64,000 nt of DNA from a virus. The notes under the pieces were generated by a model that did no database searches, was not told the DNA's origin, and was given only the letters and a program-made list of their open reading frames with translations. Location: positions 32,001-96,000 of IMG/VR virus record IMGVR_UViG_3300020183_005033, one strand, 5' to 3'. Position 1 is the first letter of the stretch. Each line of letters starts with the position of its first letter. A program made the position numbers and the translations under genes. Below are positions 20,233-62,979 of this stretch, piece after piece.

Positions 20233-20259
20233 TAAAGTTTATTTTTTGACCTCCGATAA
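20233..20259 (+). promoter_or_regulatory. Sigma-28 (FliA)-type promoter
   Basis: TAAAGTTT-N11-TCCGATAA upstream of ATG 20281. Confidence 0.85.
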
Positions 20260-20280
20260 GTATTATGTAGGGGGTGGCTT

Positions 20281-20496
20281 ATGATTAAGTTTGAAGGTAA
20301 AAAAATGTCTCCAAAACAATACGCACAAGAAGTGTTGCAACAAACACTTCTTGTAAGAATAGAGGCGGAGCTGTGCTCTTCCTCTAGAGATGAGGAAATG
20401 TCTGCAATGACGGACAAAGAAAGGGAAGAAATGATGAGACAGATTGACCTTTTGGTTGCTAGGGCACTGAAGGTGGTTGGAGGAAAAAACAAATGA
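20281..20496 (+). CDS. Hypothetical protein (putative early gene)
   Basis: GGGGTG RBS downstream of a sigma-28 motif. Confidence 0.75.
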   Translation: MIKFEGKKMSPKQYAQEVLQQTLLVRIEAELCSSSRDEEMSAMTDKEREEMMRQIDLLVARALKVVGGKNK

Positions 20497-20846
20497 AAGT
20501 TTTTGTTTATAGAAATCTTCACAAGGGCTGTCTGAGTGTAAAAGCCCTTGAGGGCGAAAAAAAAGGCAGAGTAATTGCTCACGTAGACGAAATTACGCTG
20601 TCTAACTGCCAACTCAAAGTTAGTCAAGCGGGCCGCGCTAGAGTGCTGCGCGAGCGTCAAAAAAATGTCCACGCAGGCGTAAAGGGCGAGTGGAGTCAAG
20701 GGCTTAATTTTGTGATTGAGTCTATGACCAAAGTACGATACAACCCTTATGAAGTTTCTACATTTGTAGAAACAAACACAGGAAATCCAGTGCTTACGGC
20801 AAAAGAAGTTTTTATTAGCAAAAATGGAGTTTTTGTTAATTTTTAA
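20493..20846 (+). CDS. Conserved phage protein of unknown function
   Basis: VYRNLHK...GRARVLRERQKNVHA...YNPY pattern, recalled from many phages. Confidence 0.75.
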   Translation: MKVFVYRNLHKGCLSVKALEGEKKGRVIAHVDEITLSNCQLKVSQAGRARVLRERQKNVHAGVKGEWSQGLNFVIESMTKVRYNPYEVSTFVETNTGNPVLTAKEVFISKNGVFVNF

Positions 20847-20847
20847 T

Positions 20848-20874
20848 TAAAGTTTATTCACTGACTGCCGATAA
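20848..20874 (+). promoter_or_regulatory. Sigma-28 (FliA)-type promoter, exact consensus
   Basis: TAAAGTTT-attcactgact-GCCGATAA, then AGGAGGTG RBS and ATG 20896. Confidence 0.9.
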
Positions 20875-20895
20875 GTATTATGTAGGAGGTGAGTT

Positions 20896-21198
20896 ATGAG
20901 ATTAGTAAATTTAACACCACATACCGTCAATGTGATTAACGGCCAAAACTACGCCAGTGAAGGCGTAGTCAGAGTTTCTGAAACAGAAACTCAAGTTGGA
21001 GAAGTTGGCGGAATCCCGCTCTTTTCCAAGGTTTTTGGAAAAGTTGTTGGCTTGCCAGAGCCAACGGAAGGCACAATGTTTATTGTGTCTGCTCTTGTCA
21101 AGGCTGCTTGCCCTGACAGAAAGGACTTACTTGTCCCTACCAAATTGGTAAGGGACGAAAAAGGCAACATTATTGGTTGCTGTGGCTTTGCTGTTTAA
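20896..21198 (+). CDS. Conserved phage protein of unknown function
   Basis: NLTPH...GLPEP...IVS...DLLVP...VRD..G.IIGC pattern; strong RBS. Confidence 0.8.
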   Translation: MRLVNLTPHTVNVINGQNYASEGVVRVSETETQVGEVGGIPLFSKVFGKVVGLPEPTEGTMFIVSALVKAACPDRKDLLVPTKLVRDEKGNIIGCCGFAV

Positions 21199-21223
21199 TG
21201 CTTTATTAACTAAAGGGGGTTTT

Positions 21224-21559
21224 ATGACAATCAATGACGAGTTCTTCAAGAAGACACAAGAAAACCTTAAGAAAATCAAAGCGCAAAACAATAAATATAC
21301 ACTCAAAACGTATAACATTGACGGCAAGGCTGAAGCAGAAGAGCTGCCGTCAACTCAACCTGTCACCCCAGAGCCAACAGAAACCCAAGACAATGTTGTT
21401 TCTCTTGATGCCTTCAGAAAAAAACAAGTTGCAAGTCAGACCAAAACCAGTAGAGTTGAGCTGTCCATTGAAGAAAGAATGAAACGAGTTGCAGAGTCAA
21501 TTAACAGAATTAATGACTTGATGGATCAACTTGAAAAGAACAACAGGAAGCCCCAATGA
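21224..21559 (+). CDS. Hypothetical protein with an SspB-like [10 protein letters not shown] motif
   Basis: AGGGGG RBS before ATG 21224; coiled-coil C-terminus. Confidence 0.65.
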
Positions 21560-22521
21560 TTGACCTTAAAATTGGCAATCCAGACCTGATTATAGAACTT
21601 CTGAGAAAGAATCTACCTCATGACCTTGTCTCGTCGACAATCATGAGTGGGATGCCTTACCACAAAGAAGGCCCTTTGCCAGAAGTTATTAATACAATTA
21701 AGATACTGCACGAAAGATTCCATCCAAACCTTCTTACCCCCAACTCCCACATTATTGTCGGGAGTGGGGCATCTCAAATTATTTCAAGCTTTTTTCATAT
21801 TCATAATACTCCAGCCGTTCCTACGCCCTATTGGTTTAGGATTCCACACTTAGCCAAGCTTCATAATGCAACTCCTAAGTACACTCATTTCAATCAAGAA
21901 ATAAATCTACTGACGTACCCCAATAACCCCAACGGTACTTTGCCCCTACTGCCGTACAACAGTAAGACTTGGTATGACGCTGTCTATTTGTGGCCTTGGT
22001 ACTTCAATACAGATTCAGACTTTGATAGCGCTACAGCAAAACTTGCTGAAACGCCTAAAACAGCTACAGTCTTTACTTTGTCTAAGATGACAGGTCACTG
22101 TGGAACGAGGTTTGGATGGGCAATCGTAGAAGATGCGGGGATTGCTGCCCAAATTAATAACTATATGGAACTAGAGTCCGGCGGTTTGTCTCACGATGCT
22201 CAAATCAAAGCTATGGCAGTCATGGAGTGCCTACTGAATGAAGAGCTATGGATAGAAGAGCTAACTAATATTCAAGGTATTATGGCAGAGAGAAAAGAAG
22301 TCTTTCAGGATTTCTGCCATAAGAATGAATGGTCTTACGCCAAAGGGTCTGGGATGTTTGCTTGGGTGACTATGGCCGAAGGGAATGCGGCAGATACCTT
22401 TAAAGAGCTAGGCTTGCTAGGGACATGTGGCACCAAGTGCGGCGGCAACCTTAGTCAAGTTAGGTTGAATTTGGCTGTAGATACAAAGACTTGGGAAAAA
22501 GCGTTAAAAGTGATTTTATGA
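21556..22521 (+). CDS. PLP-dependent enzyme, alliinase/tryptophan aminotransferase (TAA1)-like
   Basis: [44 protein letters not shown] (PLP lysine), MFAWV, VRLNL. Confidence 0.8.
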
Positions 22522-61290: not shown

Positions 61291-61314
61291 AGGTTTTTGT
61301 TGACCCTCCGATAA
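61288..61314 (+). promoter_or_regulatory. Sigma-28-type promoter
   Basis: TAAAGGTT-N11-TCCGATAA upstream of GGGAGGTG and ATG 61347. Confidence 0.85.
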
Positions 61315-61346
61315 GACTTATGTAAGTCAACTACGGGAGGTGCTGC

Positions 61347-61568
61347 ATGTACACAGTTCTTATTGAGTCTGATGTTGCTCCAATGACCATGCCTAACTGG
61401 ACAATTGACCAATCCTTTGAGGCTGAGTTTGACACACTAGGCGAAGCGGAGTCCTACGTGCGCTCATTGGAGCGTTGGTCCGCAGCAGATGCTCATGATG
61501 AGCTATGGGCTTGGCACGGTCCACAATTTAGAATCTTTTCAGAAGAGGCAGGAGACTTTTGTGATTAA
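61347..61568 (+). CDS. Acidic hypothetical protein (putative early gene)
   Basis: GGAGGTG RBS after a sigma-28 motif. Confidence 0.75.
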   Translation: MYTVLIESDVAPMTMPNWTIDQSFEAEFDTLGEAESYVRSLERWSAADAHDELWAWHGPQFRIFSEEAGDFCD

Positions 61569-61581
61569 AAGGGGATTGATT

Positions 61582-61944
61582 ATGTTTAAGTATTTGAGTT
61601 TATTTGTGTTTTTGGTTGGTTGTGGCGCTCCGCAAACTCCAGACGAAGTCAAAGCAGACAACTTCTTGCAAGAGTTTGTGGGCGACTGTAAAAAAGTCCA
61701 TGGAGACAGGTGCGATGTTCCCATGACAGTTCACAGCCTTAGCGAGTCTGCCGACGAGCAGACTTGTTGGACAGAAGACGGTAATCCTATTAGGTCTGTG
61801 GTGCTTCATAGGGAGGCGGTGACCCGAGGCAACAGGGCGGCTGTCTACCAAGAGTTGTTTTATTGCAGCCTGAATTTAAGCACGCTTCAGAGTGACCTGT
61901 TGAGTTTAGAAGAGTTTGCCAAGGCTATTGGTCTAAGTAAATAA
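61582..61944 (+). CDS. Cys-rich lipoprotein
   Basis: Lipobox MFKYLSLFVFLVG|C; AGGGG RBS. Confidence 0.75.
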   Translation: MFKYLSLFVFLVGCGAPQTPDEVKADNFLQEFVGDCKKVHGDRCDVPMTVHSLSESADEQTCWTEDGNPIRSVVLHREAVTRGNRAAVYQELFYCSLNLSTLQSDLLSLEEFAKAIGLSK

Positions 61945-62374
61945 TCTATAATAAGGATTTGGTTTATTATAGTCTACGCTCGTAGCCTATAATAAGCTCA
62001 TGGACAAAGTTTTACAAAAATGAAGTTTAGATGACGTGCAGATGAAATCTATTGACCATTTTAGTGTTGGTTGGTCAATAGAAGTCATTAGAATGGCCAA
62101 TAGGCGGTCAATAGAAAATGATTGGCCAGTTGAGCAGGTGTTGTATGCTTGTTTGAGGTGGGACTTGTGAGTTACCGAGAAATACTTTGCTTCATGACTC
62201 GGAAGAACAGGCCATCCAGTTTCTTGATACACCGACTCATGTTTTGTTTGACAAGACCCCTAATGAGCATATAAAAGATGGTTACGGCCAGACGGTCATC
62301 GAGTGGCTGAATGAGTTGGTCGGACGTTAATAGCATTCTAAAGAATATTAATAACATTCCATGGAGAACAAAAA

Positions 62375-62587
62375 ATGACAGAATCTCAATGGCTTGACGC
62401 TCAGAAGGCTTACGACAGAGTTAGGGCATTATTAGTTCAAGATGGCCAAACAATGGAACAGGCTCAAAAGACTCTTGAGACTCTTGTACTGTTTGTGATG
62501 GGAAGTAAACTCAATAAAGAAGAAAGCAACGTCCATTTGGCCAAGTTTTTAGAGGCTATGTTGAAGGGCGATAAGCCACAGTGTTAA
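62375..62587 (+). CDS. Hypothetical protein
   Basis: GGAG RBS. Confidence 0.6.
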   Translation: MTESQWLDAQKAYDRVRALLVQDGQTMEQAQKTLETLVLFVMGSKLNKEESNVHLAKFLEAMLKGDKPQC

Positions 62588-62629
62588 ATAGTTTGAAATG
62601 TTTCTATTTTTTTCTAACTAGGTATTTTT

Positions 62630-62962
62630 ATGAAAAACTTATTTTTATGTGTGCTATTGGTTGGTTGCGCTTCATCTCCGCAGGTTCCAAATTCTGCTCC
62701 GCAGCCAACACCCACCCCCACTCAAGCACCTAAGCGTCAGCCAAAATATAAGATAGGCGACTGCCTCATGATTGTTGACTTGCCAAACGGAGAGACTAAG
62801 TCTCGCCATAGAGTCAGAGTTGAGAAAGTCGGCGTTGACCGTTATTACTACAGATGGCTTCTTGACGATGGGCGCTGGGATACAGAACTATCTAGTAATG
62901 TAGGCAAATTTGAAGTTTTAGAAAAAATTTCAAAAAAAGTGTTTGACTGCCCTAAAGGTTAA
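62630..62962 (+). CDS. Lipoprotein with Pro/Thr linker
   Basis: Lipobox MKNLFLCVLLVG|C; PQPTPTPT linker; KYKIGDCL beta domain. Confidence 0.75.
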   Translation: MKNLFLCVLLVGCASSPQVPNSAPQPTPTPTQAPKRQPKYKIGDCLMIVDLPNGETKSRHRVRVEKVGVDRYYYRWLLDDGRWDTELSSNVGKFEVLEKISKKVFDCPKG

Positions 62963-62979
62963 CGCTAGACAGCCGATAA
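62953..62979 (+). promoter_or_regulatory. Sigma-28-type promoter
   Basis: TAAAGGTT-N11-GCCGATAA, then GGAGGTG and ATG 63000. Confidence 0.88.

Follow-up and report, generated by a model that had tools for sequence, protein, structure and literature searches.

Promoters of class 3 flagellar and chemotaxis genes are read by sigma-28, that is FliA in Escherichia coli and Salmonella, SigD in Bacillus subtilis and WhiG in Streptomyces, and their canonical consensus is TAAAGTTT-N11-GCCGATAA. Systems with phage-encoded sigma factors include SPO1 (gp28 and gp33/34) and T4 (gp55), and Juhala and colleagues are said to have described, in 2000, the morons of lambdoid phages as promoter-gene-terminator units inserted between conserved genes. 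The canonical sigma-28 consensus is the one used by E. coli FliA, and of the 140 attack-phase promoters of Bdellovibrio bacteriovorus 92 contain a FliA-type motif, printed as TTAAG-N16-CCGATA (Karunker et al. 2013, PMC3627812). Two studies of T4-type phages (Arbiol et al. 2010, PMC2839356; Comeau et al. 2014, PMC4122927) deal with promoter-early stem-loop (PeSL) cassettes, in which repeated strong promoter/terminator modules flank small non-essential open reading frames (ORFs) of variable regions and recombination between the repeats, giving rise to mini-circles, reshuffles the genes from one close relative to another (PMC2839356); for flagellotropic and pilitropic phages of Alphaproteobacteria, binding sites for CtrA are reported (PMC9437464). 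Here we analyse a stretch of 64,000 nucleotides (the window), which corresponds to bases 32001-96000 of the IMG/VR record IMGVR_UViG_3300020183_005033 (G000; 122,436 bp, estimated to be 75% complete, GC 0.42), derives from a contractile-tailed phage (PHROG matches to ribonucleotide reductase, head, sheath and baseplate proteins) and contains six sites resembling sigma-28 promoters. From their sequence and that of their relatives, these sites are very probably real promoters of the sigma-28 class (FliA/SigD/WhiG), and we put at roughly 0.6 the probability that they are read by a FliA-type sigma of the host.

A capsid-based search of IMG/VR gave three close relatives with 97-98% capsid identity, and G000, G001 and G002 (whose sites lie on locus L125) were used as the ortholog set. 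G001 is 162,747 bp long, has direct terminal repeats, is rated 100% complete and is syntenic with G000 at a nucleotide identity of about 67-90%, a second figure for the pair being 70-82%. The initial annotation had placed six sites of the form T[AC]AAG[GT]TT-N11-[GT][CT]CGATAAG upstream of genes in the window, and all of them are present: this pattern has exactly six matches (20233, 20848, 24327, 28870, 61288 and 62953), all on the + strand, which is the strand of the genes, against none expected (mean 0.00 and maximum 0 in 100 dinucleotide-preserving shuffles). The six promoters are the following:

20233..20260, + strand: P1, TAAAGTTT-N11-TCCGATAAG, with leader TATTATGTA, ribosome-binding site (RBS) GGGGGTG and start codon at 20281; orthologs at G001 154791 and G002 L125 5822
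20848..20875, + strand: P2, TAAAGTTT-N11-GCCGATAAG, the exact consensus, beginning 2 nt past the stop of the preceding gene, with start codon at 20896; orthologs at G001 155196 and L125 6442
24327..24354, + strand: P3, TCAAGGTT-N11-GTCGATAAG, heading a self-contained unit just 5' of the capsid gene; orthologs, reading TAAAGTCT...GCCGATAAG, at G001 158172 and L125 9390
28870..28897, + strand: P4, TAAAGGTT-N11-TCCGATAAG, with start codon at 28918; orthologs at G001 3060 and L125 14051
61288..61315, + strand: P5, TAAAGGTT-N11-TCCGATAAG, its first three bases being the stop codon of the preceding gene, with a 31-nt leader and start codon at 61347; promoter and leader counterpart at G001 34556
62953..62980, + strand: P6, TAAAGGTT-N11-GCCGATAAG, overlapping the stop of the preceding gene, with start codon at 63000; ortholog at G001 36458

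The full record contains the same six strict sites, with none on the reverse strand and none for the reversed control pattern, and in a weight matrix built from the six these score 45-55 bits, the next best position anywhere reaching 11.9. When compared with the canonical TAAAGTTT-N11-GCCGATAA, the site at 20848 has no mismatch, in agreement with the exact match claimed for it earlier, those at 20233 and 62953 have one, those at 28870 and 61288 two and that at 24327 three; allowing up to three mismatches, the canonical consensus has 8 matches in the window versus 1.11 expected. Positions 24389 and 26756, with three mismatches each, were considered and rejected as promoters, both being inside ORFs and looking like chance matches. 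The looser pattern T[AC]AAG-N16-CGATA[AT] occurs 7 times in G000 (0.27 expected) and 17 times in G001 (0.35 expected). Thus, on the frequency check that had been set beforehand, the sites are enriched over shuffled sequence and placed before genes on the coding strand.

The geometry of the sites is likewise strict. The -35 box is TAAAG(G/T)TT in five of the six sites and TCAAGGTT in the other, the spacer between the two 8-mers is exactly 11 nt in all six, and the -10 box contains CGATAA in 6/6 and CCGATAA in 5/6, with a G after GATAA in every case. From P1 to P6 the distance between motif and start codon is 20, 20, 20, 20, 31 and 19 nt, and between motif and GG[AG]GGTG RBS it is 9 nt, except at 61288, where it is 20 nt; the spacing of about 20-32 nt that had been attributed to the RBS therefore fits the start codon (19-31 nt) and not the RBS itself, and the motif at 62953, whose start had been given correctly, ends at 62980 and not at 62979. 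Like class 3 flagellar promoters, the phage sites match the -35 element TAAAGTTT, the 11-nt spacer and the -10 element GCCGATAA; unlike them, they front non-flagellar accessory genes, carry a G after GATAA and lead through a conserved short leader into a strong RBS. In a seventh, weaker site, at G000 100048-100075 (window coordinate 68048, outside the window), a perfect -10 box (CCCGATAAG) is paired with a -35 box of poor fit (TAAAAAAT); an RBS follows, and then a short ORF whose product, of ~34 amino acids (aa), looks like a hydrophobic peptide. On the minus strand, a variant TAAAGTTT-N11-TCCGAATAG is found at G000 114031.

The conservation of the sites among relatives has a clear footprint. 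Over 15 orthologous pairs from the three genomes, identity is 0.87 in the -35 box, drops to 0.56 in the spacer and rises to 0.93 in the -10 box; the 45 nt preceding the site have an identity of 0.66, and the sequence past the leader one of 0.52. All six window sites have positional counterparts in G001, and P1-P4 also in G002. In G001 we find 12 forward and 3 reverse matches with up to two mismatches, versus a single control match, and 13 of its 17 looser sites are followed by a Shine-Dalgarno (SD) sequence and a start codon 18-43 nt downstream; one of these 13, at 120985 inside a long ORF, is doubtful. Two conserved boxes held at a fixed distance across a drifting spacer are the pattern of a sigma-dependent promoter, and not that of a recombination site or of a coding constraint. 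The sites thus behave, as had been proposed, as sigma-28-type promoters.

Concerning the way in which these promoters may function, each site comprises a -35 box TAAAG(G/T)TT, a free 11-nt spacer, a -10 box (G/T)CCGATAAG, a short leader and a strong SD sequence; from what is known of sigma-28, the transcript would start a few bases after GATAA, which would leave a 5' leader of only ~12-25 nt. The sites would be read by the host core polymerase with a host FliA-type sigma, so that expression of the units would depend on a FliA-active host, normally a flagellated and motile one, and the promoters head small accessory units rather than the virion genes, which bear a TAAAAT element (see below). 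Such an arrangement would resemble that of the phages with CtrA sites, in which phage genes are likewise wired to a host regulator tied to the motile state; there, however, CtrA is a response regulator acting on ordinary promoters, whereas here a sigma factor would be borrowed.

The host core enzyme with a host FliA-type sigma is the most likely reader because no phage sigma or RNA polymerase is detectable. The Pfam models Sigma70_r2, r4 and r4_2 have no match in G000 at E<=1, and the r2 and r4 models none in the complete G001, while TIGR02479 (FliA_WhiG) finds nothing at E<=10 in any of four related records. A FliA profile of our own, built from 25 ORFs of 20 bacterial loci and run unfiltered against all 1,764 ORFs from six-frame translation of the two genomes, reached no better than E 0.57; a phmmer search with a divergent phage sigma (from G012, described below) gave a best E of 0.082, and hhalign comparison of 186 phage proteins with a FliA alignment a best probability of 10.5%. 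Domains of the RNA polymerase beta-prime subunit were searched for without a match, as was FlgM in either genome; the search for T7-type RNA polymerases was also negative but carries no weight, the control genomes being silent as well. In the segment of G001 without equivalent in G000, the large ORFs either encode tail-fibre or virion proteins or belong to no family, and none is transcription machinery. The initial annotation had offered a phage sigma encoded outside the window as its alternative, and neither the rest of the record nor the complete relative G001 contains a match to the sigma-70-family, FliA/WhiG or beta-prime models. The phage shares with systems such as those of SPO1 and T4 a dedicated promoter class that sets apart a group of phage genes, but differs from them in that no sigma is detected in G000 or in G001.

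These results bear directly on the possibility that the sites are read by a phage-encoded specificity factor beyond recognition, either a sigma that is truncated or very divergent, or an unrelated protein able to redirect the host polymerase; the likeness to sigma-28 would then have been inherited from FliA specificity or reached by convergence on it. The phage sigmas already known, T4 gp55 among them, are very divergent, many ORFs of G000 and G001 have no family, and one of 25 other motif-bearing records, G012, does encode a divergent sigma-70-family protein of 260 aa (L213 1153-1935, - strand), with an RpoD-like region 2 (E ~2e-11, NCBIfam) and outside the FliA subfamily. However, the consensus of the sites is that of FliA, unchanged in boxes and spacing, so that their reader should be a recognisable FliA relative with regions 2 and 4 still identifiable, and the Pfam, TIGR02479, FliA-profile, phmmer and hhalign searches are all negative in a complete genome. 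Furthermore, among at least 25 other records with the motif, none of the four complete ones has a match to sigma-70 region 2 or to FliA; within the 25, two have weak, sub-threshold matches to sigma-70 region 2 and one provirus has a broken FliA-like match. We thus regard a phage factor as unlikely.

The occurrence of the motif in other viruses is informative in this respect. A strict-motif scan of IMG/VR returned at least 117 loci, and among the loci listed 33 carry 2-7 loose copies, usually co-oriented and 15-50 nt before an SD sequence and a start codon, on contigs with a GC of 0.28-0.55 from apparently unrelated uncultured viruses (for example L060, L009, L021, L014 and L039). We have analysed further 25 of these 33, omitting L110 and L115 (G001 itself), L053 (on the contig of L014) and L049 (with the sequences of L022), as well as L015, L047, L062 and L082 for a weak second match. 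The 117 unique sites share features that the search had not imposed: a C before TAAAG, an A/T-rich stretch upstream and, where the -10 box begins, most often a G. Counted over 27 records, G000 and G001 among them, a 12-base core occurs 98 times versus 3 for the reversed control, a contrast that is biased because the records were chosen for having the motif. On the other hand, 45 distant capsid relatives (20-25% identity, 721 kb surrounding the capsid genes) yielded 11 loose matches, none of which, judged by eye, combines TAAAG(T/G)TT with a CCGATAA box, and a Cytophagales assembly with a related phage contig gave 4 motif matches versus 6 control matches. Being present in unrelated records and not in the distant capsid relatives, the motif appears to follow something common to many hosts and not one phage lineage, and this distribution fits a conserved host sigma. 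In L060, four near-identical TCAAGTTT...ACCGATAAG promoter-leader repeats are found and a site lies directly before a homolog of rIIA, a classical early gene in T4, and in the complete G010 all five sites are within the first 9.5 kb; by analogy, an early timing of the units is suggested.

A further possibility is that a host sigma of the FliA/WhiG family does read the sites but serves a programme other than motility, in which case nothing could be concluded about a motile state. WhiG in actinomycetes and sigma-28 in chlamydiae are indeed put to non-flagellar uses, although in most bacteria that have a FliA-family sigma it is the flagellar class 3 factor. The FliA-type motif of B. bacteriovorus controls many non-flagellar genes (PMC3627812), and to this extent the attack-phase regulon resembles the phage system, showing that such a sigma can carry a large programme; its consensus, however, has a different -35 box and is one base wider (TTAAG-N16-CCGATA, as compared with TAAAG-N15-CCGATA in the phage). 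The idea of a predatory host, also put forward earlier, gains nothing from this comparison and is not supported. Overall, a host sigma devoted to a non-motility programme seems to us rather improbable.

Other attempts to approach the host gave little. There is no close cultured phage: for capsid and sheath the best matches, with an amino-acid identity of 22-29%, are in Myxococcus phage Mx1 and Bacteroides DAC phages, 25 kb compared by megablast with the phages of GenBank gave no match, and blastn with the P2 promoter and leader gave chance-level matches only (E 2-5), one of them in Pseudoalteromonas phage H101. Neither the window nor G001 yielded any tRNA gene. A search of genome contigs with the ribonucleotide reductase large subunit retrieved only LNEN01000305.1 (146,658 bp, from a Cytophagales metagenome-assembled genome), at 54% identity; since this contig also carries a capsid homolog (26% identity), it is probably a distantly related phage binned with the bacterium, and it was not taken as evidence of the host. 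A look-up of the GmhA-type protein described below gave mixed phyla, and together with a lytic transglycosylase this protein offers weak hints of a Gram-negative host. Sequences of G000 are found in lake-water and freshwater metagenome runs, all 24 rows being DNA contigs.

The genes behind the promoters were proposed to be clusters of small non-structural ORFs, and family searches of the units, together with the first genes in G001, show blocks of small genes that are mostly non-structural. The units and the terminators associated with them are:

20191..20224, + strand: intrinsic terminator closing the preceding virion block, directly before P1; 15-pair stem and T run
20281..20846, + strand: P1 unit, with a 71-aa ORF and a 117-aa Phage_L5_gp82-family protein (PF25735, E 1.2e-42)
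20896..24325, + strand: P2 unit, with a 100-aa ORF, a 128-aa ORF, a 321-aa protein, dCMP deaminase, a GmhA-type SIS protein and small ORFs
22491-22910: dCMP deaminase (phrog_174, E 3.7e-14)
23083-23721: GmhA-type SIS protein (SIS_2, E 8.5e-29; phosphoheptose isomerase clusters)
24375..24772, + strand: P3 unit, with 86-aa and 44-aa ORFs of no family
24797..24833, + strand: intrinsic terminator ending the P3 unit, 5' of the TAAAAT elements of the capsid gene
28918..32327, + strand: P4 unit, with a 164-aa ORF, small ORFs, a lytic transglycosylase-like protein, a 137-aa ORF, dUTPase and a 130-aa ORF
30119-31000: lytic transglycosylase-like protein (transglycosylase and endolysin families, ~1e-12)
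31378-31938: dUTPase (phrog_135, E 8.6e-23)
61347..62962, + strand: P5 unit, with a 73-aa ORF followed by ORFs of 151, 70 and 110 aa, of no family
63000..63197, + strand: first gene of the P6 unit, 65 aa

The genes directly following 11 flagged sites of G001 encode products of 56-152 aa. The 71-aa ORF behind P1 (window 20281-20496) has a sub-threshold match to ComFB (E 0.006, 17 bits versus a cut-off of 25). The P3 and P4 units directly adjoin the capsid and tail modules. The terminator before P1 has a folding energy of -20.1 kcal/mol (z -4.9) and that after the P3 unit one of -20.4 kcal/mol (z -5.6, with a U run after it), and in both cases none of 200 shuffles was as good; the hairpin before P1 is retained in G001 and G002 through changes on both arms. 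In G000 terminators are found upstream of P1 alone and downstream of the P3 unit alone, and G001 and G002 also have one before P4.

A point absent from the initial annotation is that the promoter-proximal genes are hypervariable cassettes. In a protein comparison of G000 with G001, no G001 homolog exists for the gene that directly follows P1 (71 aa) or for the one that follows P2 (100 aa), and the first gene behind P3 (86 aa) reaches just 37% identity with its counterpart, against 94-97% for the genes around it. The first gene behind P6 (65 aa) does have a homolog in G001, at 54% identity, but located behind another sigma-28-type promoter on the opposite strand (111936-). Before P4, both G001 and G002 have an additional unit of promoter and gene (G001 2711). 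Around a 106-aa ORF G001 has two promoters (34556 and 34987) where G000 has one, P5, whose promoter and leader match those at G001 34556 and whose gene matches the one behind G001 34987. Since first genes turn over and reappear behind other copies of the promoter, the repeated promoter-leader also seems to be a joint at which cassettes are gained, lost and swapped, presumably through recombination at the promoters. The units have no distinct composition, their GC being 0.37-0.43 as compared with 0.41-0.49 in the flanking blocks and ~0.42 in the genome.

This organisation recalls two known types of mobile unit. As in the PeSL cassettes, first genes differ or move at the promoters between G000 and G001, and P1 and P3 are paired with terminators; PeSL promoters, however, are sigma-70-like whereas those described here are sigma-28-like, and here only some units have a terminator. 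As in morons, the P3 unit alone forms a complete module, its promoter, pair of small ORFs and strong terminator lying immediately 5' of the capsid gene, and the presence of such units varies between relatives; unlike morons, the units do not stand out in base composition and their promoter class is not the housekeeping one.

The exchange of cassettes exactly at the repeats might also suggest that the motif is not primarily a promoter but a recombination or cassette junction, a site for a phage regulator or a translational control element (the SD sequence pairs with the promoter segment at five of the six window sites when read-through RNA is folded), which we consider very improbable indeed, given that bipartite conservation around a free spacer of fixed length is the signature of sigma dependence, that unrelated phages carry the motif in the same position relative to genes, and that the SD pairing shows no site-specific covariation (permutation p 0.48). 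Pairing with the SD sequence is possible for ACCTCC, at the C-rich end of the spacer and -10 box, for example within 20233-20280, 28870-28917 and 61288-61346, and among the 12 G001 sites such pairing is seen in the minimum-energy folds of about half. We have nevertheless rejected a selected anti-Shine-Dalgarno function: when promoters and leaders were swapped among 18 sites, cognate combinations scored 0.508 and non-cognate ones 0.503, and this equality indicates a generic complementarity of C-rich with G-rich segments, with no sign of selection.

A distinct scenario results from the analysis of the virion genes, which use a separate TAAAAT element that the initial annotation had missed. In the window this element is found at the following positions:

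24849..24865, + strand: two TAAAAT elements upstream of the major capsid gene
32396..32401, + strand: TAAAAT element (TGATAAAAT) upstream of the tail sheath gene
35272-35277, 36582-36587, 46959-46964, 56528-56533 and 3908-3913: further TAAAAT elements

Most virion blocks, and some genes of nucleotide metabolism, have the element 18-60 nt upstream, often in the form TGnTAAAAT and usually without a clear -35 box. Of 60 upstream regions of G000, 14 contain it (2.4 expected), as do 22 of 90 in G001, and it ranks among the most enriched upstream hexamers after the SD words; CGATAA, GATAAG, CCGATA and TAAAGT are also enriched upstream of genes in G001. With the sigma-28-like motif on the accessory islands and TAAAAT on the virion genes, the phage has at least two promoter-like classes. 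Sites of sigma-70 consensus are barely above chance (44 versus 32.5, sd 5.6, and 41 versus 33.6, sd 5.4), with no site above 10 matches out of 12. An overlapping sigma-70 promoter was also considered at the six sites, the TATTAT that follows the motif resembling a -10 box, and was dismissed, as only P4 reached 9/12 in the consensus scan.

Several considerations weigh against reading by a host FliA. The possession of fliA by the host is itself an assumption, and no RNA run is present among the 24 listed holders of G000 sequence. The comparison covers one tight clade, with capsids 97-98% identical, so that the footprint samples a limited divergence, and the promoters may partly share ancestry through duplication, their leaders being alike and their spacers often ending in GAC(C/T). 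As many phage proteins fall in no family, an unrelated or extremely divergent phage specificity factor is possible. Moreover, the units are co-directional within long gene strings and P2, P3, P5 and P6 have no upstream terminator, so that read-through could express them without these promoters. Finally, free sigma-28 is normally scarce and restrained by FlgM, which makes dependence on it risky for a lytic phage.

With respect to the remaining gene content, the virion and metabolic genes with PHROG matches in the window are:

4933-6618: ribonucleotide reductase
24928-26463, + strand: major head (capsid) protein
32441-35260, + strand: tail sheath
45372-46928: baseplate protein

Within the virion region a single gene lies on the minus strand, a 304-aa ORF (window 27201-28115) with 82% identity to its G001 counterpart. 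Beyond the window, G000 encodes a UvsX-like recombinase, a primase, a helicase, an SbcC-like protein, a head protease and a GroEL-like chaperonin, the latter of 537 aa (G000 27069-28682, - strand, in L158; phrog_5725, E 3.3e-73), and a DnaE-type polymerase is encoded by G001. Also outside the window, a polyvalent protein of 1,046 aa (G000 69-3209, L157) has GNAT, ART-PolyVal (ADP-ribosyltransferase) and kinase-like matches; by analogy with Alt of T4, an injected ADP-ribosyltransferase could modify the host polymerase. In a region without equivalent in G000, G001 encodes a protein of 742 aa (94074-96302; L152 14074-16302) in which a cadherin domain (E 4.4e-29) is accompanied by a short HigB-like match and which is probably a virion surface or fibre protein.

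Promoters of sigma-28 type and mobile promoter cassettes are both already known, and it is their widespread combination in phages that is apparently undescribed: the literature searched, which includes few subscription journals, contains no description of sigma-28-type promoters in phage genomes or of a phage-encoded FliA. Tentatively, and with somewhat less than even confidence, we suggest from the sequences at hand that borrowing of the host flagellar sigma is widespread, uncultured phages without a sigma of their own wiring mobile accessory or early cassettes to FliA through a promoter that doubles as the recombination joint. If this is true, some of the genes of infection would be switched on in flagellated, motile cells alone, which are those open to a flagellum-dependent phage, and the FliA-driven genes would keep firing should the phage shut down sigma-70. 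If the host FliA indeed reads the sites described here, they would constitute a new example of repeated regulatory modules driving the exchange of accessory genes, and a marker, obtained from sequence only, of a host with a FliA-type sigma and therefore probably flagellated. A lytic phage would then couple a class of its genes to the motility state of the host, and through the FlgM checkpoint the timing of these genes would be linked to flagellar assembly.

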